A stretch of 32,000 nt of DNA from Thiobacillus sp. GTDB taxonomy: Bacteria > Pseudomonadota > Gammaproteobacteria > Burkholderiales > Thiobacillaceae. Position numbers and translations under genes: made by a program. Below, in pieces: positions 8,683 through 28,675 of the stretch (position 1 is the first letter of the stretch; every line of letters begins with the position of its first letter). The notes beneath the pieces were generated by a model. It saw only the letters and a program-made list of their open reading frames with translations. It was not told the origin of the DNA and ran no database searches. The DNA lies in the NCBI GenBank assembly GCA_030679915.1, contig JAUXRY010000013.1:26631-58630 (forward strand), in the 5' to 3' direction.

Positions 8683-10161
8683 TTATCTATTGCCGCACGC
8701 GACTGAGAAACGTCCACAAAACGCGATATGAACTTCATAGTTTTTTGAATTCAATCCGAACTGGATTTGCTCATCCGTCATCTGCACACGGTTGTTTCGT
8801 GCAAGAGCAACCTGGACTTGAACGGTAGATCCCCTCAATGCCGCCCAAACGAATGGTTCAAGGGCCGTGTCGGCCTTCGATCCATGGGTGAAAGTTGTAA
8901 AAACAAACGGATTTTCATCCAGCAGTATGGTTTCAAACCTAGCTTGATTAAGCAGATACTCCAGCCGCTCGACACAAGCGCGACGCACCGGGATAACGCG
9001 ATCAACGGTGCAGCGGTCAAGTTGCGGCTCTGTCAGGGTGATGTCCCTTCGTGCGAGAAAGGCCAACCTCACGCGTTGTTCAGAGTCCATCAGGCCGCGT
9101 TCAACTTGTTCTTTGGTTGGCGTAATTTTTTTCATTTGCGCATAGTCCAGACGCGTCATGATCGCTGTACTCGTCAGGCCGGCATCGTTTTGCTCGGGCG
9201 TTGGGTGGAATTCGTCGCGGCTTCTGAACTGACGCGCTACATTCTCATCCGTATGGTTTATTCCGCGATTGACTTGTTCTGGACTCAGGACGACATCGCG
9301 CCGCCGAAGTAAGCCAATACTCACGGAGGGGTCAGCGTCACCGACAATGGCATCGACCTGTCGCGGGGTGGGAGTAAATGCCCCCTGCATAGTCAGGTAC
9401 CTTCTCACGGCCGGGTTGGGCTGATTCAACATCATATCCACGACCTCTTCAGGCAGGGGCCTGTAGTGCCCGATGGCGCGACTGATATCCCCCTCATTTT
9501 TGCCATGGATCAATGCCATCATGGCTTGCTTCTCCGATCCATCCCGTTTTCGTAAAGCGAGAAACAACTTAATGAGCAGGTCATTGCCGGATTCGAGTTG
9601 ATCGACCTGTTTTTTCGTGAGTTGCCTTTGTCCTGAGGCAATCATCAGGTTGAGCTCCCTTGAATTCAAGTCGAGCACGGAGTCAATCAGAGAATCCATA
9701 TCCCTTTCCTTGACCGTGATGTGCGGATTTTCAAGAAGCGCGCGTCCTATATTGGCATCTCTCGTTAAGATGAGCGCCTCAACTTGAGATTCGTTAAGGT
9801 ATGGGTAGTAGGCGATTGCTGCCCGAATTCGGGTTGACCGATGTTTGATCGCCTTAAGAACCAACGCCTCAGGTAATCGAACTTTTTTTGTGACAACTTC
9901 TCCAATCAGGAGGATACGTAAAGAGTCCACCTCGCGCTCCGGTTTAACATAGAGCCCTCTCAGCATTTCATCATCTACGCGCTGCCCCGAGAACAGGGCG
10001 AAGCTGCGGATGAAATCACGCCCACTCTCATCACCCAGTGCCAACTCAACCAATTTCAGTATTTCAGCTTCTTGGTGCGGCAAGGGGGCCGCCGATGATG
10101 GCAGGTGCATGGTCAGCGTGAGGACTGCACTGAGAAGAAAATTGATGAGATTTTTTTTCAT
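8683..10161 (-). CDS. Secreted alpha-helical repeat protein (~28-aa HEAT/LRV-like repeats), function unknown; last gene of the Tad-Rhs cluster
   Basis: N-terminal signal peptide MKKNLINFLLSAVLTLTMHLPSSA/AP. Recurring [LP][ST]xxQ[VL]xxG motif with anchors at aa 267, 295, 323, 351 and 379 (exact 28-aa spacing), and further copies at about 125, 184, 239 and 464. Spot GC is about 48-52%. Confidence 0.7.
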   Translation of the reverse strand: MKKNLINFLLSAVLTLTMHLPSSAAPLPHQEAEILKLVELALGDESGRDFIRSFALFSGQRVDDEMLRGLYVKPEREVDSLRILLIGEVVTKKVRLPEALVLKAIKHRSTRIRAAIAYYPYLNESQVEALILTRDANIGRALLENPHITVKERDMDSLIDSVLDLNSRELNLMIASGQRQLTKKQVDQLESGNDLLIKLFLALRKRDGSEKQAMMALIHGKNEGDISRAIGHYRPLPEEVVDMMLNQPNPAVRRYLTMQGAFTPTPRQVDAIVGDADPSVSIGLLRRRDVVLSPEQVNRGINHTDENVARQFRSRDEFHPTPEQNDAGLTSTAIMTRLDYAQMKKITPTKEQVERGLMDSEQRVRLAFLARRDITLTEPQLDRCTVDRVIPVRRACVERLEYLLNQARFETILLDENPFVFTTFTHGSKADTALEPFVWAALRGSTVQVQVALARNNRVQMTDEQIQFGLNSKNYEVHIAFCGRFSVACGNR

Positions 10162-10211
10162 GAAGGATCAAATTTAGGAAGACGGCAACAAACCCCGTTG
10201 TCATGCGGCCA

Positions 10212-10916
10212 TTAATAATCGGTTTCGATTTTTTGTCCGTTCTTGTCGATGTACCAGCCTTTTCTGACAGCCTTGCCGTTGAAAATTTTGGCCTCCTGAA
10301 AGTCGCCACCGGGCATGTCATGCACGGCCGACACGGAGTATCCGGGCCTGTATCCTGGCCGCCGCTCGATATCCCAGCCGAAGTAAACCCCATTGGGGTG
10401 AAGCCGGAACTTGATGCGCAACATCCCTGGGTCTTTGTGCAGGGATTCCAGCACCGCGTCGGGGATGCGCTCAGCTATCGGGAGGGTGAAGTCGCCGATG
10501 ATGGGTCCGTCCCAATCGATCCCGCCATTTTTCCCCCAGATCGCTTTAGGCTTTTCCCGCCATATCACCCGTACCCAAAGGGGCACACGGGCACTGCCGA
10601 AATCACCGATTGATCGCTTACGAAGGGCGACGCTACCTGAACTGAAAATCGAATAGCCATTATCGCTGTAGATCTTCACACCCTCCATCTCTGCGCCCGC
10701 TACCGCATCCACCACCAACTGGATGCCGATACCGTGGAAGCGCAGTAGCATGGCTTGCTCCTTGGGGCTCAGGGAGTCGTGATACGTCTTTTCGCGTTCC
10801 TCGCCTGCCTTGCGGGCGGCGCGCACTTCGGCTGGGACGCACGCCGTGAGCAAGGGCAAGCCTGCGAGCAGGGCCAACAGTTTGCGTTTCATGGGCTGGT
10901 GTCGGGTGTTTTGCAT
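10212..10916 (-). CDS. Lipoprotein, candidate immunity protein for the Rhs C-terminal lipase
   Basis: Lipobox LLTAC in MQNTRHQPMKRKLLALLAGLPLLTAC/VP. The start is 1 nt after the Rhs stop codon. Its position matches the canonical toxin-immunity order. The immunity role is inference. Confidence 0.72.
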   Translation of the reverse strand: MQNTRHQPMKRKLLALLAGLPLLTACVPAEVRAARKAGEEREKTYHDSLSPKEQAMLLRFHGIGIQLVVDAVAGAEMEGVKIYSDNGYSIFSSGSVALRKRSIGDFGSARVPLWVRVIWREKPKAIWGKNGGIDWDGPIIGDFTLPIAERIPDAVLESLHKDPGMLRIKFRLHPNGVYFGWDIERRPGYRPGYSVSAVHDMPGGDFQEAKIFNGKAVRKGWYIDKNGQKIETDY

Positions 10917-10917
10917 C

Positions 10918-13900
10918 TTACTGTACCGTCAGGTTGATGTTATAGCCATTGGCATTGAGCCATTTCAGATAGCCCTGCATATCAATCGTCCCCGTCTGAT
11001 TAGTCGTGTAGCCAAACGAGTTCTTGGGCAGGTCCGAACGCTCGGTATAGGTGATGAACTGCTCGGTATCGGCAAAGGTCATGCCGGTACCGGTCATTTT
11101 GCGCTGCGTGGTCTTGGCGGTGATTTTGCCCTTGTCGTCGCGATAGCGCACTTCCCGATCCTCCGCGCCCGAGCCCGAAATTGACGTGGTCGGGATGTCG
11201 TAGTCGTTATTCCACGCGCTGTCGTTGACGATGGGCGAGCCCGCTTTGGGGGAACCAAAGCGGATGGCATCGCTTTTATCATGGATGACGGGGTTGGCAA
11301 TGATGGTATTGGGTGGCGACTTCATCGTTACTCCGGCAGCCTCGGCCTGATCGATCATCCACACTAGGGCGACTTGCGCCAACTGGTTTTCGTTAGGGCC
11401 AAATCCGCCGCCAATGTCGGCGTGGGCGCCGATGAAGCCACGCTCAATATGGGTCTGCCCAAAGGGCACGGTTCCGCCCATAATGGACTCCAGCGGAAAC
11501 CCGCCCCAGGAATGGGTATCCCAAGGCTTGGCACGCCCGAGCGGCAGTGTATGGTCTCGGAACTCGTTCAGGGCGACAGCCTGCGCCACATACTGAAAGC
11601 CGGGCACGATATTGAAGTTGTAACTGGTACCAGACCAATTGTCACTTAGCACGGTGTCCCACAGACCCATGAAGCGGAAGTTTATTTTTTGGCAGTATTG
11701 TTTCCCGTCACGGACGTAGCGGTAGGCGCCGTTGATGGTGTTTGCGTTGATGCGGTTGGCAAATTCGCGCGCCTGCGCCGCACCGCGGCTAAAACCAACG
11801 ATGTCAATGTCCATGGCTATCCCATCATCAAAAGCATCCGCTTCGTCTTTGAAATACTCCACCATGCGCTCGATGCGTTCCGGTCCGCTCCAGTTGACGC
11901 CGGTATCCAGCAGTGGCGCGTTGATGTCGCTGTACGCAGAGCCATCGGGTTCTTTGTGCACGACACCAACACCAGTGATGTAGCGCTTGTTTCCATCGTT
12001 ATACAAATCATAGAAATTCCACACATTCGACAGAGAACTGTCGTTCTTGGCCAACCAAGCCAGGTCCTTCGTATTCTCCGTTCCATCAAACGCAAACAAT
12101 ATCAACCCCCACGGATCGATATAACTCAGCGGGTTGTTGTTGACGTACGCGTAGGTATTGGGGCTGCCCAATACTTCAGCCAGCCTACCCAGCGGATCTG
12201 GACTTAGGTAGCGGCCTGCTTGCGGGTCGTAATAGCGGATGTCGTTGTAATACAGCCCACTCTCGGCATCTTCCCACTGGCCGGGCAAGCGCAGGGCCAG
12301 GGTGTAGATGGATTTATTACTTGGAGATGCACTGGTTTTAATCAGCCGGCCATAGGGTGCATAGTCGGTCTGCCATAAGGTTTGCCCTTTGCGGTCGGTG
12401 GCGGCAATGGGCGCACCCAGATGGTTGACGTGGACAAAGGCAATACTGTCTTCATTGCCAGTAAGGCTGGTCCACAGTGCTTGGGCAGTTTGGGTCAGCT
12501 CTGCGAAGAAATCATCGGCAGGTGCGTGTAGTGCTTTGGGTTGTTTAGTATCCAAAGTGGCAATGAGCTGATCAGCCAGCCAAAGATATTGCCGGATGAT
12601 ATGACCGTTGGCGTCGAGGTCGGCAATGCGCTGGCGTTGAGCGTTATAAAGGGCATAGGTTGATTCACTGCCCACCTGTTTGCTGACGCGAAGACCGTGA
12701 TGGTCATAGCGATAGTGGGCAATGTCTTTGTTTGCCTGCCGAATGGTGATGAGTTGGCCCTGGGCATTCCAGACGTATTCGCGACCCAGCTCAGGCGGGG
12801 TCAACATGGCATTGCTGGCGGAATCGTAGCTGGCTTTGCGGGTGTGGCCCATCTCGGTGACGGGAACATTTTCTTGTGCGAGATCACGGTTGCCTTTGCG
12901 GTCGTAGCGATAACGCCAAGCACTGGGCGCACTTGCCGCATTGGTCACTTTGACTGTCGCTGACATGCCAGAGGATTGCGCAGCGACCAGCTGCGATTGC
13001 CGATCGTAGGCATAGGCTTGGCTGTGCTGCACGCCCTGTCCTTGCTGTTCTTGCAGCAGCACATTGCCAGCGCCATCGTAAATCAATCGTGCGTCGAATA
13101 AGGCCAGCGGATTAGCTGGGAGGCCCAGTGCGCCGGGGAGTTTTCTAGGGGCATCGGCCGGTGTTTGTGCATGCGCTACAGGTAGAAGCTTACTCAACAA
13201 GCTTTCAAGAATGGGTTGCCTGACAGCCTCCCGAGAAGCGGCGGCGATACGTGCAGAATTAACTGCCATGCCTTTAGGGCGGGTGTACACCACGCGTGCC
13301 AATATGCCCTGCTTGCTGCGTTGCCATTGGCCCTGAATGCCGTTGCCGTAGGTCACGCTACGCAGGCCAATCAGGTCGCGTTCCAGATCTTTAACGAGGG
13401 TGGTTTTGCCCCAGCCGAATAATGTCCATGGGCTGCTTTGCTGGCTCACGGCTACAACCTGGCCCTGGCCGTTGCGCTCGTAATTGATTTGGGTGCCGTC
13501 GGGTAGGCTTTGGCTTTGCAGGCTGCCATCGGCGGTGTAGCGGTAACAGGTTACGTGGGTAGCTACAGCGCCGTTATTCAACCTGAGGGTGTCGGTTTTG
13601 ATGGCTGGCTGGCCACGCTCGTTGTAGGTGATGCGTTCGGACTGGTTGGGATGAACGACTTCAGCCAGCCGACCCTGCTTATCGCGCCAGGTTGTGGTTT
13701 GTGGCTCGCCTGTTTTTGGAATAATACTGAGGCGTATGCGCTGGCCGGTCAGGTCGTAGGCGTAGATTTGTATGTCGCCTTGGTCATTGCGCTGCTGAAT
13801 GAGTTGGTCAGCTGCGTTGTATTGCTTGATGGTGCTGCCATGGCTGGGACTTATAACGCTGACAGTGCGGCCAAAATCATCCTTCAGTGTTTGGAAAGCT

Positions 13901-16143
13901 GACTGACTACGCGGCCGCTGGGCATTCGAGCTTTTACCGTAAACAATATTGCGCACACTGCCGGTGTTGTCTGCCACCTGGACGAGGCGATTGAGTACGT
14001 CATATCGATACTGCTCGGTTTGCTCAAAGCTGCGGGTTTGTACGGTGCTGCTGAGCAGATTGCCTTCGGTGTCGTAGCGGGCGCGTTTGAGTATGCCCAG
14101 CGCTTCGGCCTGCCATAACAGGCGGCCGGCCACGTCGTAGGCTAGTCGGGTTTGCGGGCGGTAAGGTTCTACTGCTCCACGTTCAGATGTGTCAGGCGCG
14201 TTAATCTGGCCACCCATTCCTGTTTCGATCATGTGGCCCAGCGCGTCGTAACGATAACGCTGCACCGTTGGTTGGATGCCGGCCTGTTCCCAATTCTGCC
14301 CACTGCTGGATGTTTGAATGAGTTGGCTTCCCGCATCGTAGGTGAAAGTGGTTTTGAAATTGTCGGCGTTGCTGACCACTGCAATGCGACCGACCGCATC
14401 ATATTTAACCGTGCTCGTTTGACTGCCCGGTGGTGTCATCACCACTACTGCATTACCCCGCCCATCCCACTCAATCCGCGTGACATCCGAATCCACCGGA
14501 CTGTTCTTCGGCCCGTTCTTCAACGGCCCATCGATCTGGCTCAGCAGGCTGCGGCCATTGATCGTTTGGTAGGTGTAAGTGGTGGTGCGGCTGATCGGGG
14601 TAGCGGTGGTCTGCCCCTTGTCATCCAGCGGACTGAAGCCGGTTTCGGTGACCTGTGTAGGTTGGCCCAGTGCGTTGGTGCTGATGCGAACCTGATGTTC
14701 ACGGCCGGGAATAACGCTGGGGCGGGCGATGAGACTGGGCTGGTTGGTATCGCCAGCGTATTCGTAGCGCACCTGCAGTTGGGCGGGCTGGGGGTTGCCG
14801 TTTATATAGGCAACGGTGTCGATGCGGAGGGGCCGGCCCGGGTTGTCGCGTTCGGTTTGGGTGGTGAGGCGCGGCTGGCCGCTGGGGCTGAGTTGGGTGT
14901 GTTCGGTTAAGCGGCCGAGTCTGTCGTAGCCGTATTTGACGTTGGACTCGCCGCAGCTGGCGCAGCCGGGGCCGCGCACGTCGAGCAGGCGGTGTTCGTT
15001 GCCGACGATGGCGTGGCTGTAGGTGGTTTGTTGGCCAAGGCTGTTGGTGAGGGTGGTCTTGCCGGGGGAGAAGGTGAGGTTGACCTGTTCGAGGCCGCGT
15101 CCTGAGTTTGCCGAAGGGCCGGTGCCGGGAACAGGCTTGCCGTCTGTGCCGAGTTGCCGGGGCAGGCCTTTGACGCTGAGGATGCCGCGACCCTGGTTGT
15201 CGTAAGCCCAGGTGGAGATGCGTTGAGGCTTGCCCTGCCCTGCCACGCTCAGCCCGGTTAGCAGGGTGGCGTGCGCGGCATCTTCGTAGTGGTAGTGGCG
15301 GCTGGTTGTATTGGGGAAGGTGACGGCGACGAGGTTGGCCAGGAGGTCGCGCGGGTTGCCGGTGTAGGCTTGGGGAGCAGCGCTGCCGTAGGCATAGCTG
15401 AAGCGGCCGACGGGGCTTTCGATATGGGTGACGCCGTTGAAGCGGCTGGGGTCGCGTTTGCCGGGGTAGCCGAGGACGAGGCTGCGGCCCTGGGGGTCGG
15501 TGACTTTGACGAGGACGCCGGTAAGGTCGCGGGTGAGGCTGGCAAATTCGCCGGTGGGGGCGCGGATTTCAGTGAGTTTGCCTTGTGTGTTGAAGATGAG
15601 GATGCGGCCGTTATTCCAGGTCCAGCGGTATTCGTCTCCGCGTTGGGTTTTATGGATGGTAACGCTGCCGTTTGCAGGGTTGTTGGTGGCGCACAGGTTG
15701 GGGTTGTTGCGGTTGCGGATGAAGATGATGCGGGTGCCGTCGGCCTGCATGATCTGCAAGGTGTTGCCGATGGGGTTGAGATCGGTTTCGTAAGAAAGGC
15801 GCCAGCCGCGGCCGAGCACGCCGTTGGACGACCGGGGATCGGCGTGCACGCTGTTGTAGTGACGAACGATTTCCAGGCCGAGCACACCGGGCAAGGCAGG
15901 CAAGTCGACTTCACGCTGATACTTGTTGCCGGTGATGAGGTTGATGGGGTTGCCGGCACCCTGGTTGGTGTCTGAGGTATTGCCCTGGCTGGCGGGACCT
16001 TCTCCTCCGCAAGGGGAACCCGAGTCGCCCGGTCCGCACTGGGTGGGAGTGACGCCTGGGGGGAGTTCGGCTTGTGCCGGCAGAGCGAATAGCAGGCTGC
16101 CGATCAGTAACAGCAGGAGGGTAAAGGCGCGCAGGGGGGTCAT
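10918..16143 (-). CDS. Rhs/YD-repeat toxin with an N-terminal Sec signal peptide and a C-terminal DUF2235 (Tle1-like) phospholipase domain
   Basis: 1741-aa ORF. Signal peptide MTPLRAFTLLLLLIGSLLFALPAQA/E. Rhs entry motif GNPINLITGNKYQREVDLP and many YD-type repeats (YxYDxxGxL-like). Core end motifs RYYDPQAGRYLSPDP and NNPLSYIDPWGL. The C-terminus has FDGTEN, GFSRG and FMGLWDTV. Confidence 0.93.
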   Translation of the reverse strand: MTPLRAFTLLLLLIGSLLFALPAQAELPPGVTPTQCGPGDSGSPCGGEGPASQGNTSDTNQGAGNPINLITGNKYQREVDLPALPGVLGLEIVRHYNSVHADPRSSNGVLGRGWRLSYETDLNPIGNTLQIMQADGTRIIFIRNRNNPNLCATNNPANGSVTIHKTQRGDEYRWTWNNGRILIFNTQGKLTEIRAPTGEFASLTRDLTGVLVKVTDPQGRSLVLGYPGKRDPSRFNGVTHIESPVGRFSYAYGSAAPQAYTGNPRDLLANLVAVTFPNTTSRHYHYEDAAHATLLTGLSVAGQGKPQRISTWAYDNQGRGILSVKGLPRQLGTDGKPVPGTGPSANSGRGLEQVNLTFSPGKTTLTNSLGQQTTYSHAIVGNEHRLLDVRGPGCASCGESNVKYGYDRLGRLTEHTQLSPSGQPRLTTQTERDNPGRPLRIDTVAYINGNPQPAQLQVRYEYAGDTNQPSLIARPSVIPGREHQVRISTNALGQPTQVTETGFSPLDDKGQTTATPISRTTTYTYQTINGRSLLSQIDGPLKNGPKNSPVDSDVTRIEWDGRGNAVVVMTPPGSQTSTVKYDAVGRIAVVSNADNFKTTFTYDAGSQLIQTSSSGQNWEQAGIQPTVQRYRYDALGHMIETGMGGQINAPDTSERGAVEPYRPQTRLAYDVAGRLLWQAEALGILKRARYDTEGNLLSSTVQTRSFEQTEQYRYDVLNRLVQVADNTGSVRNIVYGKSSNAQRPRSQSAFQTLKDDFGRTVSVISPSHGSTIKQYNAADQLIQQRNDQGDIQIYAYDLTGQRIRLSIIPKTGEPQTTTWRDKQGRLAEVVHPNQSERITYNERGQPAIKTDTLRLNNGAVATHVTCYRYTADGSLQSQSLPDGTQINYERNGQGQVVAVSQQSSPWTLFGWGKTTLVKDLERDLIGLRSVTYGNGIQGQWQRSKQGILARVVYTRPKGMAVNSARIAAASREAVRQPILESLLSKLLPVAHAQTPADAPRKLPGALGLPANPLALFDARLIYDGAGNVLLQEQQGQGVQHSQAYAYDRQSQLVAAQSSGMSATVKVTNAASAPSAWRYRYDRKGNRDLAQENVPVTEMGHTRKASYDSASNAMLTPPELGREYVWNAQGQLITIRQANKDIAHYRYDHHGLRVSKQVGSESTYALYNAQRQRIADLDANGHIIRQYLWLADQLIATLDTKQPKALHAPADDFFAELTQTAQALWTSLTGNEDSIAFVHVNHLGAPIAATDRKGQTLWQTDYAPYGRLIKTSASPSNKSIYTLALRLPGQWEDAESGLYYNDIRYYDPQAGRYLSPDPLGRLAEVLGSPNTYAYVNNNPLSYIDPWGLILFAFDGTENTKDLAWLAKNDSSLSNVWNFYDLYNDGNKRYITGVGVVHKEPDGSAYSDINAPLLDTGVNWSGPERIERMVEYFKDEADAFDDGIAMDIDIVGFSRGAAQAREFANRINANTINGAYRYVRDGKQYCQKINFRFMGLWDTVLSDNWSGTSYNFNIVPGFQYVAQAVALNEFRDHTLPLGRAKPWDTHSWGGFPLESIMGGTVPFGQTHIERGFIGAHADIGGGFGPNENQLAQVALVWMIDQAEAAGVTMKSPPNTIIANPVIHDKSDAIRFGSPKAGSPIVNDSAWNNDYDIPTTSISGSGAEDREVRYRDDKGKITAKTTQRKMTGTGMTFADTEQFITYTERSDLPKNSFGYTTNQTGTIDMQGYLKWLNANGYNINLTVQ
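10921..12102 (-). other. Rhs C-terminal toxin module (394 aa after DPWGL): DUF2235/Tle1-like alpha/beta-hydrolase lipase plus a ~130-aa unassigned tail
   Basis: The DPWGL boundary is encoded at 12103-12117. The GxSxG nucleophile elbow GFSRG is at 11782-11796 (ggttttagccgcggt on the minus strand). FAFDGTEN and GLWDTV motifs are typical of DUF2235. Confidence 0.8.
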
Positions 16144-17186
16144 CGTTTGATCGAATCAAGAATCGAAGGAGGATTGTTTGAAGGGATGCTCGACATCTGC
16201 GGAACGTCATCCGGGTCGATCTCACCATTGGCCAACAGACAGCAGTAGTTCTTGCCGCAGCCGGGGTCGCAACTCACGTCGCCCACCTGGCAGCCTGGAG
16301 GGCGGCAACCATTGGGGTCGGTGCTGGCATCGCATTGCGGGGTAGGTGTGCATGCCGGGTTGCTGACCGGGCACTTTGGCAATTCGCCATTTCCAGGCCC
16401 GGGGTCTTGGCCCGGACCTGGGTCTTTGGGCACCCCTTCATTGCCGGGACCGGGGCTGCTGGCGTTAGCGTTTTCATAGGCCGCGCTTTGCATGCGCATG
16501 ACGGTGTGGGTGACGACGGGGATGCGCCCGGCTGCAACCAGCCCCTGACGAAAAGAATCGGTGTCGCCGCCGTTCAAGAATCCGAGCGCCCAGGTCATGA
16601 AACGGCCGGCCAACGGAATCTGCTTGCGATCGGGAATACCGTAAGTAATACGGATTTTGAGGAGGTTGGCGTCGAGCAGGGTCTGGCCGCTTTTATTGAC
16701 CTTGGGGTCGTTGTTGCAGCCGGGCACATCCACCGGGCATTTAATAAAGGCCAAGTTGCTGTTGGGAATGACGCGCGATGAGATGCCGAGTTTCGCCTTG
16801 AGACCAGAACTGGCGTAATCATCAAAGCTCTCTTTGGTGGGAGAAAGAATTTCGACGCGAACGAAAGCGGCGTCGGCAGCAGCCCTGGCATAGGATGTAG
16901 CGAGCTGGGCGGTGGTGGTGCCACCGCCGTAATAGCCGGTCATGGCGCGTGTGAAGGCGGTGCGGATGGCGGTGGGGTCGGCGTTGGAGACACTACCCGC
17001 TCGAGCAGCTTCATAGGTGGCGTAGTTGAGCTGGCTCTTGGCGTGGTATAGCAGGCCATACTGAATGAGGTTCATCAGCACAAACAGCAAGGTGGGCGCA
17101 ACGATGACGAACTCGACCAGAGTGGCGCCGGCCTGGAATACCGAAGGGCGCTGCGGATGTATGGAAACAGGATTGAAGGCGCGCAT
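16140..17186 (-). CDS. TadE-like pseudopilin with a Gly/Pro linker and a Cys-rich C-terminal module
   Basis: N-terminus ...FQAG/ATLVEFVIVAPTLLFVLM (G/xxxxEF prepilin-like motif plus TadE-type hydrophobic helix). C-terminus has a SSPGPGNEGVPKDPGPGQDPGPGNGELP linker, then 9 Cys within aa 272-316. Its stop overlaps the Rhs start (ATGA at 16140-16143). Confidence 0.8.
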   Translation of the reverse strand: MRAFNPVSIHPQRPSVFQAGATLVEFVIVAPTLLFVLMNLIQYGLLYHAKSQLNYATYEAARAGSVSNADPTAIRTAFTRAMTGYYGGGTTTAQLATSYARAAADAAFVRVEILSPTKESFDDYASSGLKAKLGISSRVIPNSNLAFIKCPVDVPGCNNDPKVNKSGQTLLDANLLKIRITYGIPDRKQIPLAGRFMTWALGFLNGGDTDSFRQGLVAAGRIPVVTHTVMRMQSAAYENANASSPGPGNEGVPKDPGPGQDPGPGNGELPKCPVSNPACTPTPQCDASTDPNGCRPPGCQVGDVSCDPGCGKNYCCLLANGEIDPDDVPQMSSIPSNNPPSILDSIKR

Positions 17187-17200
17187 GGAAAAGGGAAGTT

Positions 17201-17926
17201 TCAGGGTTTAACGATGAGCGCCTGGTCGACCCAGCCTTCGGCAGCAGCGCTTTTCACTTTGAGGTAGCGGCCCTGGGCTTCACCCAGATAAATCACTTCT
17301 TCCTTTTTTTCGAGTTGGCCCAATACATTGGATTCCAACCGGGGCTCGGCCAGTAACTTGACGCGGGCAATACGGACAGACAAAAGATCGCCGGCGCTGT
17401 ACGCGACATTGGATGCGCTGGCCACTTGATTACCCGGTTTCGCAACCGATTGAACCCGGCCAGATGCGGTGGATGCTCCACTCGCTTGTTCAGTTTGAAA
17501 TTGCGCGTAGGTTTTATCAAAGCTGGCGGCGGAAAAGCCGGTGAGCTTGTGGCTGCCCATGATAGTGAGCGGCACTCCCCGCCCGCCTAATGCGCGCCAT
17601 TCAGATTCGGCCTGTGCATTGCTGGACACGTCTTTTTCCAGAAAGGGGATGCCACGGCTTTGCAGGTGCACACGTGCCTGCTTGCAGTACCCGCAGTTAG
17701 GTGTGCCATAGAGGACGATTTCACCTGGACGGGCATCACGGATTTCAGCGTTGGCCGGGCGAGTGCCCGCGCTAGGGGTTTCGATGCTGCGAAACATGCC
17801 GGATACACCCCGGTAGATTTGCTGATTGACCTGACCTTGCATGGTGCTTTCGAACACCGAAACCGGGTCCCATGCCAGGACCGGCGTTGACATCAGATAC
17901 GCCAGAAAAATGCTCAAACGCTTCAT
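17201..17926 (-). CDS. Secreted glutaredoxin/thioredoxin-fold protein with a C-terminal SH3b-like domain
   Basis: Signal peptide MKRLSIFLAYLMSTPVLA/WD. Redox motif IVLYGTPNCGYCKQAR. The C-terminus (GDLLSVRIARVKLLAEPRLESNVLGQLEKKEEVIYLGEAQGRYLKVK...GWV) resembles bacterial SH3. ATGA overlap with the DUF192 gene. Confidence 0.72.
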   Translation of the reverse strand: MKRLSIFLAYLMSTPVLAWDPVSVFESTMQGQVNQQIYRGVSGMFRSIETPSAGTRPANAEIRDARPGEIVLYGTPNCGYCKQARVHLQSRGIPFLEKDVSSNAQAESEWRALGGRGVPLTIMGSHKLTGFSAASFDKTYAQFQTEQASGASTASGRVQSVAKPGNQVASASNVAYSAGDLLSVRIARVKLLAEPRLESNVLGQLEKKEEVIYLGEAQGRYLKVKSAAAEGWVDQALIVKP

Positions 17927-18291
17927 GCTCCACTCTCCTGATTAAAGCCTTGCAGGCTGCGGGCGAGCGATATGCCGACAGCCAGTTCAAGCCGCTGGGC
18001 TTCGCCCGCTGCCAGCTCAAGCGTCTGCCAGGCGCCGGAGCACGTGGCGGCTCGCCATGGCTTGAGGTGAGGAACAATTTTCTGGATGCGCCCTGCCCCA
18101 TCCAGAAAAACCACGTCGATGGAAAACCGCATGAAGGCGGTGTGGACGGCGGCGCAGGGAACAATAAGCAGGCCCTGGCCAGGCTGCAACGGCGGCGAGA
18201 ACAACAGACCGGCCAGCCGGCTGAAGAAATGGTCGGCGCGGCGCACGGCCAGTTTGGAAGGAGAAGTCAGGGTTTGCATGTCATGCCGCAT
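17923..18291 (-). CDS. DUF192-family protein
   Basis: Size (~120 aa) and motifs (FFSRLAGLLF...GLLIVPCAAVHTAFMRFSIDVVFLD..G.I) fit the DUF192/COG1430 pattern. It starts immediately after the tadC stop. Confidence 0.65.
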   Translation of the reverse strand: MRHDMQTLTSPSKLAVRRADHFFSRLAGLLFSPPLQPGQGLLIVPCAAVHTAFMRFSIDVVFLDGAGRIQKIVPHLKPWRAATCSGAWQTLELAAGEAQRLELAVGISLARSLQGFNQESGA

Positions 18292-19188
18292 CTAAAAGGT
18301 GGAAGCCATGAATTTCATGGCGATGGGGAACATGAGAATGGCGAAGACGCAGGGAAAAATGAAGAAGATCAGCGGGAACAGCAGCTTGACCGGAGCTTCC
18401 ATGGCGAGCTTTTCGGCGCGGGCGAAACGTTCGATGCGGCGCTGGTCAGCCTGGGCGCGCAGGATTGGGCCGAGGCTCATGCCGGTGGCTTCGGCCTGGA
18501 TCAGGGTGGAAACGAAGCTGGAGACGGCGGCCATATCCATACGGGCTGCCAGCTCTCGCAGGGCTTCGGATCGGGGCTTGCCGGCTCGAATATCGCGCAA
18601 CAGGCGAGCGAACTCATCTTTCAGGGCCCCGGATGGACCTTTATCGACGGCCTGCTGGATGGCACCGGCAAGGTTGAGGCCGGATTCGACGCACAGCGTG
18701 ATGAGGTCGAGCATGAACGGCAGTGATTTCAAAGCCTGACGTCGCCGGACGTCAATGCGGTCTTTGAGCCAGATGGCAGGATAGATAAAGCCGAGCAGAA
18801 AGGCCGCCATGGAAGGGCCCGCTGCTGGAATCCTGAAAGTTGTGGCCAACCAACCACCGATTAGGCCGAAAATGCACCCCCACAGTAAACGTCCCGCCAA
18901 ATACTGGGCAGGGCTCAGCGAAAAATCCAGGCCGGCAATACGCAACTTGGTCAATATCGAGGTTTGGCGAGCGGCAGACAGCCAAGGGTCAATGTAGTGT
19001 GCCAACCACTGCAGTGGCCACCACATCAGACGAAAACCAACTGGCGGTGCATCAAGCCAGGCACGATCCTGTTTCGGCACATCCGCTGCCAGACGCGATA
19101 TCACCCAGGCGACGAGCGCGAACGACAGCCCCGCCGCCAGCGCAAAAACGGCGATGATCCATTGGGGATTCAGGTCTGGCGGATTCAT
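18292..19188 (-). CDS. tadC: Tad pilus inner-membrane platform protein TadC (T2SS-F domain)
   Basis: T2SS-F-like domain (LPFMLDLITLCVESGLNLAGAIQQ...) with flanking TM segments. Preferred start is ATG 19188 with GAGGA 7 nt upstream, rather than the track's TTG at 19209. Confidence 0.85.
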   Translation of the reverse strand: MNPPDLNPQWIIAVFALAAGLSFALVAWVISRLAADVPKQDRAWLDAPPVGFRLMWWPLQWLAHYIDPWLSAARQTSILTKLRIAGLDFSLSPAQYLAGRLLWGCIFGLIGGWLATTFRIPAAGPSMAAFLLGFIYPAIWLKDRIDVRRRQALKSLPFMLDLITLCVESGLNLAGAIQQAVDKGPSGALKDEFARLLRDIRAGKPRSEALRELAARMDMAAVSSFVSTLIQAEATGMSLGPILRAQADQRRIERFARAEKLAMEAPVKLLFPLIFFIFPCVFAILMFPIAMKFMASTF

Positions 19189-19198
19189 GCCGAGTTCC

Positions 19199-20047
19199 TC
19201 ATACGTCAATGGCCACGATGCGCCGGATGATCCAGACGCCGAAGAATTCCATGGTCACCACCGCGGCGATTACGCCCCACCCGATCTGGGTAGTCCACAA
19301 CAGTGACATCGCGGCGGGTTCCATTTTGGTGAGCACCCAAAGCAGGAAAAGGGGTAACAAACCAACCACCCAGGCTTGCAGCTTGCCCTGGCTGGTCAGT
19401 GCGCGAATCTTGAGTTCCATGGCGTGTTGGCTGCGCAGGGTGGTGGCGGTGCGTTCCAGCGTTTCGGCCAGACCACCGCCCGTTTCAGACGCAATCCGCA
19501 TGGCCGAGACCATGAGATTGACCGATTGCATGGGGACGCGATGCGTGAGATTTTCCAGCGCGTCGTTAAGGCTGACGCCGAGACGCTGCTCGTGCTGCAT
19601 CAGCTGAAACTCTTGAGACAGCGGCGGCGGTAGTTCAGCGCCCACTTGGCGCACGGCAGAAACGAGCGACAAACCGGCTTTGGCTGCGCCTGAAATCATC
19701 AGCAAGGCATCGGGCAGTTGTTGTTCGATGCGATCGATGCGACGACGCCGAAGCCAACGAAAAATGAAACGTGGCGCCAGCGCCAGCAGAACAGCAACAA
19801 TCAACGCCAGGACCAGGCTATGTGTCAGCAGCCAGGTGCCCGTGGAGGCTATCAGCATCATCGCCAGATTAAGTGCATACAGCCGCGACGGGTCCGCAAA
19901 CAGAAACAGTTCGCGCATGCTGAAATGGGTGTCGCGCGTAAAGCGCGTGCGATAAGCAACCAGCCAGCGCCCCCCCAGATCAGTCAGTGCCCAGACCAGC
20001 AGGGCAACTGCTGCGGCAACGGCAAAACTGAAGCCAATGACAATCAT
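19199..20047 (-). CDS. tadB: Tad pilus inner-membrane platform protein TadB (T2SS-F domain)
   Basis: T2SS-F-like domain (QLPDALLMISGAAKAGLSLVSAVRQV...) with N- and C-terminal TM segments. ATGA overlap with cpaF. Confidence 0.85.
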   Translation of the reverse strand: MIVIGFSFAVAAAVALLVWALTDLGGRWLVAYRTRFTRDTHFSMRELFLFADPSRLYALNLAMMLIASTGTWLLTHSLVLALIVAVLLALAPRFIFRWLRRRRIDRIEQQLPDALLMISGAAKAGLSLVSAVRQVGAELPPPLSQEFQLMQHEQRLGVSLNDALENLTHRVPMQSVNLMVSAMRIASETGGGLAETLERTATTLRSQHAMELKIRALTSQGKLQAWVVGLLPLFLLWVLTKMEPAAMSLLWTTQIGWGVIAAVVTMEFFGVWIIRRIVAIDV

Positions 20048-21705: not shown

Positions 21706-21719
21706 AGATATCCCGCTTC

Positions 21720-23434: not shown

Positions 23435-24289
23435 CTATCGGTATGCTGGCAATTCGCCCCCCTCCCGACCCACGCGCGCATTCATGCTTTGGCCTTCGGT
23501 AATAGGCCCACCTCCGTAGATCACGGGAACGGAGCTGGCGGCAGAACCCTGGCCGGTCGCGAGTCCCAGCAAGACCAAGGCATCGGTGCGTTCCTTGGAA
23601 ACATGAGCGCCGTCATTCGGCGCCCGCAGTAAAGCGGTGACACGGCCGACTTCACGCGCAGCAATCACGCGCTTGGCATCTTCCGGGCTGGTATCCAATG
23701 TAATGGTGCTAAACGTGCGGCTACGACCTTCCGGATCTTTTTCCTCTTGCGAGGCCTTGGTGCCAGTTGCCAGCACGGTGACGCTCTGTAGCAGCGTAAA
23801 TGTGAAGTTTTTCTTGTCGTTTTTGATCGAGACGATGATATCGATCAGATCGCCCGGCTCCACCATGCCCGACAGGGAACTGATTTCATCCACCGGAACA
23901 GTGACAGCGCGACGGCCCTGAGTCAGGCGCGTGGAAAAAGTGGGGGCACGTTGCCCTTCGAGTTGTGCCCAGATCACCGGCTCGCCGGCATTGGCCGTGT
24001 AAGCAAGGGTGGAGCCTTCCGCGCGGCCAAACTGATCGGGTGTAATCGCACCCGAGTGCGCCCATTCTTTCGGAATGGACCGCACTGCCATGTTCGCGGC
24101 AAGCAGCGCACTGCCCTTGGCGAGGTCAGTTTTGGCTACCACTACTTGAACCATGGCCTTGTTTTTTTCGCGCGCCTCTATCTCCGCCATTTGAGCGCCA
24201 AGGTAGTTCTTTGCACCCCAGGCAGCCAACCCGCCCACACCTAACGCGGAGACAAGAACAATCCAGTTTTTGTTGATTTTGTATGCCAT
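23435..24289 (-). CDS. cpaB: Flp pilus assembly protein CpaB/RcpC
   Basis: N-terminal TM anchor (NWIVLVSALGVGGLAAWGA) followed by SAF/CpaB-like regions (VVVAKTDLAKGSAL, RAVTVPVDEISSLSGMVEPGDLIDII). Its position is directly upstream of the secretin. Confidence 0.85.
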   Translation of the reverse strand: MAYKINKNWIVLVSALGVGGLAAWGAKNYLGAQMAEIEAREKNKAMVQVVVAKTDLAKGSALLAANMAVRSIPKEWAHSGAITPDQFGRAEGSTLAYTANAGEPVIWAQLEGQRAPTFSTRLTQGRRAVTVPVDEISSLSGMVEPGDLIDIIVSIKNDKKNFTFTLLQSVTVLATGTKASQEEKDPEGRSRTFSTITLDTSPEDAKRVIAAREVGRVTALLRAPNDGAHVSKERTDALVLLGLATGQGSAASSVPVIYGGGPITEGQSMNARVGREGGELPAYR

Positions 24290-24301
24290 GGTTCAGATTT
24301 T

Positions 24302-24487
24302 TTACAAGGGAATAGAAAGAAAGCCGCTCAGATTGTCGAAAGCGGAGTGGACTGAATTGAGAAACACATCGATGACGGAGACATCACCCGCAAAGCTGAC
24401 GCCGACCATCATCATGACGACCAGCATGGCAGCCAGATATTCGGTCATCGACTGTCCAGATTGCCGGTTTCTTGACGTTCCGGTCAT
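24302..24487 (-). CDS. Second Flp-family (type IVb) prepilin-like protein, 61 aa
   Basis: MTGTSRNRQSG/QSMTEYLAAMLVVMMMVGVSF: a charged leader, a G/xxxxEY motif and a hydrophobic helix. ATGA overlap with the upstream gene. Confidence 0.7.
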   Translation of the reverse strand: MTGTSRNRQSGQSMTEYLAAMLVVMMMVGVSFAGDVSVIDVFLNSVHSAFDNLSGFLSIPL

Positions 24488-25146
24488 GGCATTAGAACCG
24501 TCGTTAGAACGACATTACTGGTCCCATCCTTGCGAACCACGACCAGTTGGGCCTCGCGATTTTCGCCCCCAAACATCAGGACTCGGCCGGCTTCCTGTTT
24601 TTTCGCTTCGGCGGACTGCAGTTTGTAACCTCGCGCCTGCAATGTTTTACTTATGAACTCCACGTTGCTGTCTACGGAATGGTTATTCATAAGCACCAGT
24701 TGCCGTGAGATCTTTCCTGCGTCGGTTGACTCCATGTCAGACAGAACCTGGGTGTCGGCTGGAACCGGAAAACCCAAGGAACGCTGAGAAGCGTCTTTAG
24801 CACCGCGCGCATCACTCACCGAAATCAGCGTCTCAGTGAGGGACGGGCCCAATACCTTGATGCGAATGGTTACGAAATAATCGCCCTGCCCCTGCGCAAG
24901 CAAAATACCGTCCGGCAATTTCTCCTCGGCATGTTTAGGACCGAGTGCTGAACGATAAAACTTGATGATGTTTGACGGCTTGTCGGTGCTCAAGACACGC
25001 TGCATACGCATCGGGATCCCATTCAAACGCACTTGCTCGCCTATCTGCTCGACCCTCGCATTTCGTGGTGACGGCACTTCGGGCCAGCCCGCCCAGCCCG
25101 GCAACGTCCATAGCATTGCCGTCAAGAAAAGCCAAACCGATTTCAC
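24484..25146 (-). CDS. Secreted protein of unknown function (220 aa) inside the Tad cluster
   Basis: GTG start with GGAGG 7 nt upstream, overlapping the upstream stop (GTGA). Signal peptide (M)KSVWLFLTAMLWTLPGWA. I recognise no family. Confidence 0.6.
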   Translation of the reverse strand: MKSVWLFLTAMLWTLPGWAGWPEVPSPRNARVEQIGEQVRLNGIPMRMQRVLSTDKPSNIIKFYRSALGPKHAEEKLPDGILLAQGQGDYFVTIRIKVLGPSLTETLISVSDARGAKDASQRSLGFPVPADTQVLSDMESTDAGKISRQLVLMNNHSVDSNVEFISKTLQARGYKLQSAEAKKQEAGRVLMFGGENREAQLVVVRKDGTSNVVLTTVLMP

Positions 25147-25925
25147 TTATATGCCTCCAGAACGCGATCTTGCGGAACACGGTCGGGGTCGACGCGTCCC
25201 ACATCGGGTGGAGTGGTATCCGCGCCCAATATGGCCAGCGCTGGATTGCTCATCAGTACAGCAAGTGGTTGTGCAATGACTTCCAGTGCCTGGTAGGGAA
25301 AGAGCAAACCCGCACCTTGAACGTTATCGGTTACTTGGCCAGGTCCACTGGCTGCCCATGGGTCCACCAGAACCGTAGTCCAGCGCGTCATCCCAAGGCC
25401 AAGGGAATCGAAGGGCTTCAGACCCGCGATGTCGGCGATATTCACATTGACCCGGCCGGTGTATAAATTCTGCTCGGGTAAGCTGAAATTGCCAGCAAGT
25501 GCACCTGCTGGCTGCGAAAGCGATTCCTTATTGGTTGTCACAAGGACATTTGTGACAAATTCGGGCAGCAAGGGTTTGCCACGGTGGTCAAACCAAAGCG
25601 TGTTGCGGTGCGCGTTGAAATCGCCTGCAACGTCGTTGGTCTTGATGGGCGCATCGCTGTTGCTGAAAAAACGCCTGTGCACTTCGGTTGCCAGTTCAGC
25701 ATCGGATTTCCAGCTGTCCGTGCTGGAAGAATGTCTCACTGCACCTTCGAACGCCGTATAGCGGCTTGCCACTGCCGTTGTTTGTGCGATATCCATGTAT
25801 TTTCCCAACAGCGGAACAATGAGGATCAGTGGCACCAAAACCAATGACAGCACCACGAATTCCACTGTGGACTGCCCTCGTTGACGAAGCATGCTAAATG
25901 GGCAATTACTTGCCATCATCAGCAT
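25143..25925 (-). CDS. tadE: TadE-like pseudopilin
   Basis: ...LRQRG/QSTVEFVVLSLVLVPLILIVPLLGKYMD: G/xxxxEF motif plus TadE N-terminal helix. The start is ambiguous (Met codons at 25925, 25919, 25916 and 25892). Confidence 0.78.
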   Translation of the reverse strand: MLMMASNCPFSMLRQRGQSTVEFVVLSLVLVPLILIVPLLGKYMDIAQTTAVASRYTAFEGAVRHSSSTDSWKSDAELATEVHRRFFSNSDAPIKTNDVAGDFNAHRNTLWFDHRGKPLLPEFVTNVLVTTNKESLSQPAGALAGNFSLPEQNLYTGRVNVNIADIAGLKPFDSLGLGMTRWTTVLVDPWAASGPGQVTDNVQGAGLLFPYQALEVIAQPLAVLMSNPALAILGADTTPPDVGRVDPDRVPQDRVLEAYK

Positions 25926-26862: not shown

Positions 26863-26864
26863 AA

Positions 26865-28226: not shown

Positions 28227-28233
28227 TTGAGTT

Positions 28234-28259
28234 GCCGCCTACCCCACTTGGCAGGCGGC
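28234..28259 (-). terminator. Stem-loop just downstream of the flp pilin gene (possible attenuator or partial terminator)
   Basis: GCCGCCT (28234-28240) pairs with AGGCGGC (28253-28259), extendable by CC/GG across a mismatch. It lies in the 40-nt flp-tadG gap. No clear U-tract follows, so at most a leaky terminator or stabiliser. Confidence 0.4.
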
Positions 28260-28266
28260 GATCCGC

Positions 28267-28530
28267 TTACTCGTCCTTATTATTTGTGTAGGTATCGAGC
28301 GTCTCTTTTGTGGCTGCTTTAGCCGCGCCAGCTGTCGCAGCCGTTTGCGCCGCTGCTTTGGCCGTGGTGCCGTCGTTGCCAGCCAATTCCTGGGCGATCG
28401 CAGCGGTCTGGTTACGTACCGTAGAACCAAAATACTGATACACGGCAATCGCGGCAATCGCAATCATCGCAACAATAATGATGTATTCAGTCATGCCCTG
28501 ACCCCGTTGTGAACGACGCATTGATTTCAT
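28267..28530 (-). CDS. flp: Flp-family type IVb prepilin (major pilin candidate), 87 aa
   Basis: MKSMRRSQRG/QGMTEYIIIVAMIAIAAIAVYQYFG: Flp G/xxxxEY motif and hydrophobic helix. ATG 28530 is preceded by GGGAG. The longer track ORF (to 28608) adds an implausible leader. Unusually long Ala/Thr/Lys-rich C-terminal tail. Confidence 0.85.
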   Translation of the reverse strand: MKSMRRSQRGQGMTEYIIIVAMIAIAAIAVYQYFGSTVRNQTAAIAQELAGNDGTTAKAAAQTAATAGAAKAATKETLDTYTNNKDE

Positions 28531-28659
28531 GCCAACTCCCTTTCTTAAAACGATTTTGAGAAGCCACACACAAAGTGCGCGACTTGCGCGGAGCAACGCC
28601 AAGCACAATCAGGCGTAACTTCAGGGCGCGAGAGTATTGGGTTGGAAATGGCAGGACCA

Positions 28660-28675
28660 TAGAGCATATGCTCTA
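28660..28675. promoter_or_regulatory. Perfect 16-bp palindrome TAGAGCATATGCTCTA in the flp upstream region; candidate operator
   Basis: Read directly. It lies ~130 bp upstream of the flp ATG and ~140 bp downstream of the LuxR-type gene stop. The binding factor is unknown. Confidence 0.4.

Follow-up and report, generated by a model that had tools for sequence, protein, structure and literature searches.

The 32,000-nucleotide stretch of DNA analysed here (the window; contig JAUXRY010000013.1), from a metagenome-assembled genome of Thiobacillus sp., carries on its minus strand an operon in which the genes of a Tad/Flp pilus are followed by a gene for an Rhs polymorphic toxin. We propose that this Tad (type IVc pilus) machine is probably specialised to carry polymorphic toxins on a TadE-like minor pilin, for export or for delivery on contact. 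As read from its genes, the operon encodes all that a filament machine needs, namely the Flp pilin, an ATPase and two platform proteins together with CpaB, a secretin and several minor pilins, and its terminal TadE-like pilin is predicted to be translationally coupled to the Rhs protein. Comparison with homologous loci points to pilin and toxin being inherited as a unit, and being swapped as a unit or fused, across bacteria. A preliminary description of this DNA had suggested that the Tad-like machine exports or presents Rhs, and the suggestion is supported here by conserved synteny, a reciprocal search, a second operon position and single-chain fusions. Coordinates are window positions; annotation was based on open reading frame (ORF) calls, Pfam and direct reading of the sequence; homologous loci are labelled L001 etc. 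and proteins P0316 etc.

ORF ends, Pfam and sequence agree with the preliminary description in that a Cys-rich TadE-like pilin is joined through an ATGA overlap to a 1741-aa Rhs protein with a signal peptide (Table 1). A scan of positions 8000-18500 for promoter and terminator consensus sequences detected none between tadE and rhs, and fewer sites overall than in shuffled controls. An independent Logan assembly (L001) contained an identical 12-kb contig with the same arrangement. The pilin leader, QAG/ATLVEF, lies at 17109-17135, and a C-terminal tail with nine cysteines occupies 16143-16439; the protein has 11 cysteines in all, an odd number. Its N-terminal helix and alpha/beta core were modelled with confidence by AF2, and a Foldseek search of the model against the Protein Data Bank (PDB) gave no match with E < 0.1.

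The pairing follows particular TadE paralogs. Within the Thiobacillus group, the paralog with the nine-cysteine tail (...CD..TDPxGCRPPGC..GD..CDPGCGKNYCCLL) is the only one found 5' of Rhs. At loci with two or three TadE paralogs (L007, L010, L069), Rhs directly follows one of them, which in L007 and L010 is the one bearing the long Cys-rich tail. An OmpA-like peptidoglycan-binding C-terminus replaces this tail in some other Rhs-preceding TadE-like proteins (L037:10001-11296, L050:10001-11299, L081:8733-9944; P0319-P0322); these proteins come from Methylophilaceae, Actimicrobium and Herminiimonas. Genes for thiol-disulfide oxidoreductase-like periplasmic proteins recur in the toxin cassettes (window 17201-17926, L010:7735-8370, L022:13717-14316), with a glutaredoxin CGYC motif in the window and CPAC or CPHC motifs in Tat-signal thioredoxin/DsbA-like proteins elsewhere. 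Such recurrent genes fit the Cys-rich pilin tails and the Cys-containing toxin N-termini.

Conservation of the pairing was assessed by aligning TadE-like homologues, collecting 79 loci together with 10-kb flanks, taken from contigs that represent one genome per species, and mapping all window proteins on them. Loci of betaproteobacterial type with enough downstream sequence (n = 46) were treated as informative. Synteny was conserved: an Rhs gene started at most 1.3 kb from a TadE-like gene in 37 of the 46. In two it was farther off, about 3 kb downstream with another toxin-like cassette in between, and in seven it was absent. With an adjacent Rhs at 37 of 46 loci, the finding was the opposite of what the preliminary description had named as speaking against a linkage, namely relatives without Rhs. 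Carriers included Thiobacillus, Hydrogenophilales, Sulfuricella, Rhodoferax, Thauera, Pelomonas/Roseateles, Methylophilaceae, Noviherbaspirillum and Aquabacterium, and the adjacency was also seen in Granulosicoccaceae and Ca. Thiodiazotropha. Two gamma-type loci had it. Across the betaproteobacterial loci the first 150 residues of Rhs were 43-76% identical and the shell 27-67%. Five loci (L032, L038, L049, L050 and L081) had a stand-alone pair of TadE-like and Rhs genes among housekeeping genes, with an immunity-like gene in at least three. By a crude heuristic, a signal-peptide-like N-terminus was present in 33/42 split Rhs genes of one set and 76/87 of another.

The search was also run in the opposite direction. 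An alignment of the Rhs N-terminus was used to scan metagenome contigs, yielding 77 loci with 87 Rhs starts, of which 70 were classifiable; a homologue search with the same segment gave only short contig-end fragments and served just to choose contexts. Fifty-three of the 70 classifiable Rhs genes were Tad-linked. Among the 87 starts, a TadE-like gene was directly upstream of 36 and a secretin gene, inside a Tad operon, of 9; a further 7 were second Rhs copies in a Tad-linked array, and 1 lay in a Tad cluster with other genes intervening. Another 7 came after another Rhs, at the limit of the upstream sequence covered, and 17 had less than 3 kb of upstream sequence. The secretin-adjacent class, with Rhs placed between the secretin and ATPase genes, represents a second architecture, which in L142 reads TadG-p260-p220-CpaB-CpaC-[Rhs-lipoprotein]-CpaF-TadB-TadC-DUF192-TadE, and it ruled out the simple rule that every linked Rhs adjoins a TadE-like gene. 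Matches that covered DUF6531 alone (weak ones from Delftia and one distant, 37%-identical match) were not Tad-linked, and the Tad association therefore appears specific to this Rhs subgroup. In seven of the metagenome loci (L111, L121, L124, L136, L144, L155 and L116), a single TadE-like gene was followed by two Rhs genes in tandem, both bearing the same N-terminal motif.

Rhs is not the only toxin found behind TadE. Directly downstream of short-tailed TadE paralogs we found other toxin-like proteins with Sec signals: PT-HINT with a PD-(D/E)xK-like tip in L008 (10855-12534) and L024 (10801-12477), followed in L008 by a PoNi-domain immunity protein, and a pesticin-like lysozyme in L010 (5927-7024), followed by a Tat-signal thioredoxin-like protein. 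In L009, L014, L022 and L025 the protein has a phospholipase A2 (PLA2)-like CxxHDxCY motif, for which Pfam support was weak or absent. Non-Rhs toxin-like ORFs after TadE include L009:2864-3784, L015:10933-12171, L022:10851-11753 and L025:10848-11753. A Cys-rich N-terminal domain, C-x3-4-C-[FL]...[FWY]x[KR]xNxCx[FL], is common to these non-Rhs proteins and could be a second Tad-trafficking module.

In Gammaproteobacteria both toxin classes also occur fused to the pilin in a single chain. A 760-aa ORF in L069, a Granulosicoccaceae metagenome-assembled genome, combines TadE (6.7e-13), PT-HINT (1.3e-15) and an AHH nuclease (1.7e-10); its gene has a plain TadE gene on one side and, on the other, a third TadE gene that is followed by an Rhs. 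A search with this ORF returned about 90 TadE+PT-HINT proteins with AHH, Tox-REase-5, WHH/colicin-DNase and other tips, from sources that include the cultured Steroidobacter agaridevorans, S. flavus and S. cummioxidans as well as Allohahella. The S. agaridevorans fusion gene is located inside the same DUF192-type Tad operon, flanked by the genes for the secretin and the ATPase. Seven TadE+DUF6531 proteins were listed, six of them with RHS repeats too, and proteins with TadE, DUF6531, RHS and a YD shell came from Ca. Thiodiazotropha and Chromatiaceae. One such fusion, P0316, aligns with residues 18-250 of the window TadE protein (7e-22), continues through an acidic linker and is then colinear with the window Rhs, starting at residue 27, where the mature protein is predicted to begin (29% over 909 columns, 7e-77). 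It thus reads as a pilin body joined to a mature Rhs. Likewise, the split L008 toxin matches what is left of the L069 fusion once the pilin part is taken away (38% identity, 3e-91). In both classes the split form has cysteine-bearing segments flanking the break and the fused form has a linker, which suggests that these segments form a docking interface. We read the single-chain fusions in the Rosetta-stone sense, as evidence that pilin and toxin are linked physically or functionally.

The fusions also bear on a reading in which a short Tad pseudopilus would push periplasmic toxins through the secretin and release them, soluble, into the medium, as a type II secretion system (T2SS) does. The toxin lies covalently within a TadE prepilin in about 90 proteins, and we know of no T2SS substrate fused to a pseudopilin. 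Such covalent fusions favour display on the pilin over piston-type release, which could nonetheless still occur. The AHH, Tox-REase-5 and WHH nucleases, with their immunity genes, imply entry into the cytoplasm of another cell and not release, and the operon has a dedicated Flp major pilin. When the T2SS traits were compared (GspD with N0-N3, GspE, a single GspF, GspG-K pseudopilins and GspC/L/M), the window instead had two TadB/C-type platform proteins, Flp/TadE-type pilins and RcpC; despite these departures the machine may still function in a T2SS-like manner. In keeping with soluble release, the Sec signal peptides of the split toxins would give periplasmic intermediates like those of T2SS substrates, the lipase, lysozyme and PLA2-like cargo recalls classic secreted enzymes, Tad, type IV pili and T2SS belong to one superfamily (PMC8460266), and the authors of the Kil study raise the same option for Kil (PMC8460266). 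On balance we consider soluble release unlikely, and delivery on a TadE-like pilin is the reading retained below.

The Rhs protein has the traits of an Rhs polymorphic toxin, that is, a YD/RHS shell, an RHS core with an autoprotease motif and a variable C-terminal tip. The core ends in ...NNNPLSYIDPWGL at residues 1335-1347, with the autoprotease motif PxxxxDPxGL present. The tip is a predicted Tle1-like phospholipase: its residues 1386-1588 match the solved Tle1 of enteroaggregative E. coli (EAEC; PDB 6sjl_D, 1.8e-6), and the nucleophile motif GxSxG of the Tle1 (DUF2235) family occurs as GFSRG. No PAAR or VgrG domain match was found in the window Rhs by Pfam, and a Sec signal peptide, and Tad genes as neighbours in place of vgrG or eagR, set it apart from the Rhs effectors that a type VI secretion system (T6SS) delivers; the signal peptide argues against T6SS loading. 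The solved Rhs structures nearest to it are nevertheless all T6SS or Tc components. The first ATG of the lipoprotein gene does stand 1 nt after the Rhs stop, as described earlier; an independent gene call on the identical contig places the start 24 nt later. This lipoprotein is a candidate periplasmic immunity protein against the phospholipase. It had no match in Pfam, NCBIfam or PDB and matched no known immunity family; its homologues were found only after Rhs proteins with a tip 41-55% identical to the window tip, and so co-vary with tip subtype. The secreted repeat protein comes after it, last in the operon as described.

Comparison with the closest relative, L085, located the boundaries of a swapped segment. 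The two DNAs are 86% identical over tadE and on to the end of the Rhs core, and this homology ends at 12071, about 10 codons past DPWGL; homology resumes at 8161, at 91% identity, in a common TauE flank. The L085 Rhs core is 90% identical as protein and its toxin tip is replaced. We conclude from this break that tip, lipoprotein and 492-aa repeat protein form one swapped cassette, and the lower GC of the segment fits (0.49-0.57 versus 0.60-0.65 in the left flank). The repeat protein lies within this segment and had no homologue among about 160 related loci; it stands outside the conserved system. In 28 full-length linked Rhs proteins in which DPxGL could be located (L001-L053), 22 tips were Tle1-like, 5 were DUF6765 and 1 was of another kind, an unusually narrow repertoire for Rhs. 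Nuclease tips were rare on Tad-linked Rhs and common on TadE::PT-HINT fusions. The narrow lipase repertoire suggested that delivery is to the periplasm alone, but this idea was rejected, since both Rhs (L028, L053) and TadE fusions also bear nuclease tips of the PD-(D/E)xK-like, AHH, WHH and Tox-REase-5 kinds. Right-handed beta-helix proteins (e.g. L050:16659-17627, PF13229) follow DUF6765-tipped Rhs and may be their immunity proteins.

The same swap bears on whether pilin and toxin are coupled at all. The end of the operon might be a landing site for mobile Rhs cassettes, with the toxin leaving by lysis, in vesicles or through a T6SS encoded elsewhere, and a tip/immunity cassette of lower GC and recombinogenic character, an insertion sequence (IS) transposase at 30429-32000, T6SS or Tc proteins as the nearest solved Rhs structures and a view of the genome confined to the window would all agree with that. 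Yet the recombining part begins past the Rhs core, and the pilin-Rhs junction itself is 86% identical with L085. Adjacency moreover extends across bacterial families and two bacterial classes, to two operon positions and to stand-alone pilin+Rhs pairs, single-chain TadE-toxin fusions exist, and a cleavable Sec signal peptide together with the lack of a PAAR/VgrG match is incompatible with cytoplasmic T6SS loading. We regard an uncoupled Rhs as the least probable of the readings considered, very improbable in itself.

A third possibility is that the Rhs/YD protein chiefly serves the pilus as an accessory, either a tip adhesin or a periplasmic regulator of extension, with the toxin tip secondary. 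Its model is Bd0109, a periplasmic YD-repeat protein of the hit/tad locus proposed to regulate pilus extrusion (PMC3818213), and many clusters of this Tad subtype have no toxin. This would leave unaccounted a full Rhs with autoprotease motif, enzyme tip and co-varying lipoprotein, the swapping of tip and candidate immunity gene between close relatives, and the non-Rhs toxins in the same slot after TadE paralogs. An accessory role is accordingly very unlikely in our judgement, and we keep to Rhs as toxin cargo.

The preliminary description was accurate as to the 17 co-directional minus-strand ORFs from 28530 to 8683, all of which are in the ORF list at the coordinates it gave, and as to five 4-nt overlaps, which are real from the ORF ends (25143-25146, 24484-24487, 20044-20047, 17923-17926 and 16140-16143). 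It was also right that spacing is short; no gap between genes exceeds about 50 nt, which is less than its figure of about 110 nt. Its upper count of five prepilin-like proteins was reproduced: Flp, the 453-aa TadG-like protein, the 260-aa RGQSTVEF protein, the 61-aa GQSMTEY protein and the 348-aa AGATLVEF protein. Traits of a Tad/Flp (type IVc) pilus found in the operon were Flp prepilin, TadA/CpaF, TadB, TadC, RcpA/CpaC, RcpC/CpaB and TadE/TadG pseudopilins.

Table 1. Features of the Tad-Rhs operon and its surroundings in the window (coordinates are window positions).
Feature	Position	Strand	Evidence and remarks
LuxR-family regulator, directly 5' of flp	28812..29591	-	PF00196 GerE 4e-15; same strand as flp
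flp major prepilin, 87 aa	28267..28530	-	leader ...RGQG/MTEYIIIV, read from sequence; G/xxxEY Flp motif
TadG-like large minor pilin, 453 aa	26865..28226	-	PF13400 Tad 1.3e-5; kept in related loci
Secreted protein with signal peptide, 318 aa	25906..26862	-	sequence; no Pfam or NCBIfam match
TadE/TadF-like pseudopilin, 260 aa	25143..25925	-	leader RGQSTVEF only; no Pfam match
Conserved periplasmic protein, 220 aa, signal peptide	24484..25146	-	sequence; also in related clusters
Second Flp-like prepilin, 61 aa	24302..24487	-	SGQS/MTEYLAAM in sequence; kept in relatives
RcpC/CpaB	23435..24289	-	PF16976 1.1e-25 and SAF domain
CpaC/RcpA-type secretin, 565 aa	21720..23417	-	PF00263 1e-41 and PF13629
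CpaF/TadA ATPase with N-terminal FHA, 553 aa	20044..21705	-	PF00437 1.3e-60, PF00498 5.9e-13
TadB-like platform protein	19199..20047	-	PF00482
TadC-like platform protein	18292..19209	-	PF00482
DUF192 protein without signal peptide	17923..18291	-	PF02643 1.7e-16
Periplasmic glutaredoxin-like (CGYC) and SH3 protein, accessory	17201..17926	-	PF00462, PF08239, signal peptide
TadE-like minor pilin, 348 aa	16140..17186	-	PF07811 2e-13
Rhs polymorphic toxin, 1741 aa	10918..16143	-	Pfam and sequence
Rhs signal peptide	16069-16143	-	N-terminus MTPLRAFTLLLLLIGSLLFALPAQA/ELPP reads as Sec type
Rhs conserved motif C-x8-C..GPASQ	about 16009-16038	-	two conserved cysteines, TQCGPGDSGSPCGGEGPASQGN
Rhs DUF6531	15721-15954	-	PF20148
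Rhs YD shell up to DPWGL motif	DPWGL at 12103-12117	-	PF05593 5.8e-35, RHS core PF03527
Tle1-like phospholipase tip (predicted), 394 aa	10921-12102	-	PF09994 1.7e-17, two stretches
Lipoprotein, candidate periplasmic immunity	10212..10916	-	sequence; lipobox LLTAC
Secreted helical-repeat protein, 492 aa	8683..10161	-	signal peptide, helical repeats; weak DUF2336 match only
Variable cassette with the genes for tip, lipoprotein and repeat protein	8161..12071	-	replaced in L085 (blastn)

Several genes of the machine deserve comment. The flp ATG at 28530 is preceded by a ribosome-binding site, AAGGGAG, and the product begins MKSMRRSQRGQG/MTEYIIIV; a 57-aa ORF overlapping flp had no Pfam match. FHA (residues 25-87) and T2SSE (residues 197-475) lie within the single 553-aa ATPase. 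The true start of the TadC-like gene is probably 21 nt 3' of the TTG, and the L001 gene call gives 298 aa. The 260-aa TadE/F-like pseudopilin was found in all related clusters and the 318-aa secreted protein was weakly conserved in relatives (26-66%); the glutaredoxin+SH3 gene was missing from L085 and found in some other loci. Six unannotated operon proteins had no NCBIfam match. Most clusters of this Tad subtype, beta- and gamma-type alike (L002-L080 generally), have the DUF192 gene directly 5' of their terminal TadE-like gene, and DUF192 is a hallmark of the subtype. In several proteins (P0084, P0088, P0303-P0309) DUF192 precedes the TadE leader within one chain. DUF192-type clusters carry no prepilin peptidase gene.

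Outside the operon, the LuxR-family gene upstream of flp is a possible regulator of it. The right flank comprises this gene, DUF924 and the IS transposase (DDE_Tnp_1_6/DUF772; two genes beyond the LuxR gene), which runs off the window end. The flanks carry unrelated genes; the left one consists of a cyanophycin-synthetase-like gene, an ABC transporter, DUF1854 and TauE; at 1629-6851 the cyanophycin-synthetase-like ATP-grasp gene (minus strand) stands beside the genes for the ABC transporter, which has an N-terminal extension, and DUF1854 (plus strand). GC of the Tad cluster is 0.52-0.60, against 0.60-0.65 in the left flank, and the whole cluster may therefore be an island.

From these parts a mechanism can be proposed. 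The Rhs cage enclosing the Tle1-like phospholipase would reach the periplasm via Sec, where its conserved N-terminal C-x8-C/GPASQ segment would dock onto the TadE-like pilin at its Cys-rich tail; disulfides in this docking may be assisted by the glutaredoxin-like protein that the operon supplies to the periplasm. Because filament assembly is primed by minor pilins, the complex of pilin and toxin would be found at the tip of the Flp filament, and the FHA-CpaF motor would push it out via the CpaC secretin. On contact with a neighbour, the DPWGL autoprotease would free the phospholipase to attack target membranes, and the lipoprotein would shield the producer's own periplasm. In relatives the same machine would carry other cargo (PT-HINT nucleases, pesticin-like lysozyme and PLA2-like proteins) via paralogous TadE-like pilins. 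Stated more broadly, Tad pili would be an unrecognised polymorphic-toxin route widespread in Beta- and Gammaproteobacteria, with the TadE domain as trafficking module (fused, or split with a Cys-matched toxin) and contact delivery from the tip, the same logic perhaps identifying the missing lethal cargo of Kil in Myxococcus and Bdellovibrio, and DUF192 acting as a new assembly factor for the loaded pilins; taken jointly, we hold these statements to be evenly balanced between right and wrong.

A number of observations weigh against delivery by the pilus. The support consists of gene order, domain architecture and homology, and the adjacency counts are not phylogenetically independent. Ten of the 87 Rhs starts (10/70 classifiable) had no Tad or Rhs gene for at least 3 kb upstream. 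Among gamma-type clusters of the same Tad subtype, 17 of 19 were without a toxin, so that the toxin modules look like optional add-ons to an ordinary pilus. (The gamma-type loci, L055-L078 from Granulosicoccaceae and others, have a TPR-like lipoprotein gene, DUF192 and a terminal TadE, and most end at housekeeping genes such as mutS.) Pfam scanning of the 17 operon genes and the flanking ORFs detected no prepilin peptidase (Peptidase_A24; TadV/CpaA) and no TadZ/CpaE (ParA/MinD-like), which may be encoded elsewhere. The Cys-rich tail of the TadE-like pilin was modelled by AF2 with a predicted local distance difference test (pLDDT) score below 50, which makes the docking interface conjectural. 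The one solved Tad secretin, RcpA, has a lumen of 62 Å (PMC10499894); a folded Rhs cocoon is large, and its passage is not obviously possible. Finally, the lipases that make up 22 of the 28 tips could equally act as freely secreted enzymes.

Polymorphic toxins are sorted by their delivery machine: type V, VI and VII secretion systems (T5, T6, T7), extracellular contractile injection systems (eCIS) and so on. If the proposal is true, a pilus-borne route is added to these, and a large Tad subgroup acquires a function beyond adhesion. How a Tad-like apparatus such as Kil kills, and with what toxin, becomes testable where adaptor, cargo and immunity genes adjoin. Cultured carriers are Thauera terpenica 58Eu, Thauera sp. 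WH-2, Roseateles hydrophilus UHG3, Pelomonas aquatica KCTC 42961, Aquabacterium sp. A7-Y, Actimicrobium antarcticum and Steroidobacter species. The proposal also raises the physical question of whether an Rhs cocoon, at about 150 kDa or more, can go through a secretin at all. 'Fused to or downstream of TadE' is a possible criterion for toxin mining, one that the surveys PMC3482391, bioRxiv 2021.10.19.465003 and PMC11796102 do not use.

The earlier statement that a Tad-like apparatus, Kil, is required for contact-dependent killing in Myxococcus is correct (PMC8460266). Kil has one ATPase, KilF, which carries a fused FHA domain at its N-terminus, and no TadZ (PMC8460266); the FHA-ATPase fusion and the absence of TadZ are both found in the window, a likeness of described features. 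Kil Tip complexes (PMC8460266, PMC12075869) similarly contain TadE/F/G-type minor pilins with variable disulfide-rich C-terminal modules, and both systems have paralogous minor-pilin sets inside and outside the main cluster. These variable minor-pilin tips are the nearest known concept to the one proposed here. The Kil toxin is not known, and the authors call secretion of one unclear (PMC8460266). Tip genes are reported as restricted to Myxococcota and lack toxin domains, whereas the pilin of the window system is paired with or fused to polymorphic toxins with known or candidate immunity genes, in non-predatory Beta- and Gammaproteobacteria.

The T6SS Rhs effectors (RhsA 7q97, Tse5 8cp6, Tse15 8uy4, Tre23 7pq5) share with the window Rhs a YD cocoon, a DPxGL autoprotease motif and a polymorphic tip; they have an adjacent immunity gene, for which the lipoprotein gene is the candidate in the window, and the Tle1-like phospholipase domain is likewise known from a T6SS effector. 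Unlike them, the window Rhs has a cleavable Sec signal peptide and a conserved Cys motif where they have a PAAR or VgrG-binding domain, lies in a Tad operon and belongs to a group with a narrow tip repertoire. Type IVb pili offer a parallel for the export step: the cargo proteins TcpF of V. cholerae and CofJ of enterotoxigenic E. coli (ETEC; CofJ-CofB) are Sec-exported, encoded in the pilus operon, bind the filament-priming minor pilin through an N-terminal segment and exit via the secretin. They are, however, small colonisation factors of T4b machines and not toxin-immunity modules, and to our knowledge no type IVb pilin-cargo fusions exist.

The statement in the preliminary description that no Tad-Rhs linkage had been described nearly holds, the exception being a remark of 2013 that homologues of Bd0109 are associated with Tad pili elsewhere (PMC3818213). 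Bd0109, from the hit locus of Bdellovibrio bacteriovorus, is a 550-aa YD-repeat protein with a signal peptide, encoded beside tad genes; the proposal for it was that it controls, from the periplasm, the extrusion of type IVa pili (PMC3818213). In contrast to the window Rhs, no toxin tip, immunity gene, delivery role or pilin pairing is described for it (PMC3818213). In the searchable full-text literature, which leaves subscription-only papers outside, we found no description of a link between Tad or TadE and polymorphic toxins. The 2012 survey of polymorphic toxins by Zhang et al. (PMC3482391) never mentions pilin, pilus or TadE; a 2022 preprint (bioRxiv 2021.10.19.465003) gives a list of trafficking domains without TadE; and in a 2025 paper (PMC11796102) the quoted, non-exhaustive list lacks TadE and pilus is never mentioned. 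The window system has in common with polymorphic toxins that use known trafficking domains (PAAR/VgrG, LXG, TPS/FhaB, MafB, TANFOR and others) a modular order of trafficking module, repeats or pre-toxin and variable tip, with cassette swapping, and its lipoprotein gene is a candidate for their adjacent immunity gene. It differs in that the trafficking module would be a TadE prepilin domain, fused or as a neighbouring gene. A Tad/Kil-like machine and polymorphic toxins are each of a known kind, and their joining would be through a TadE trafficking module.

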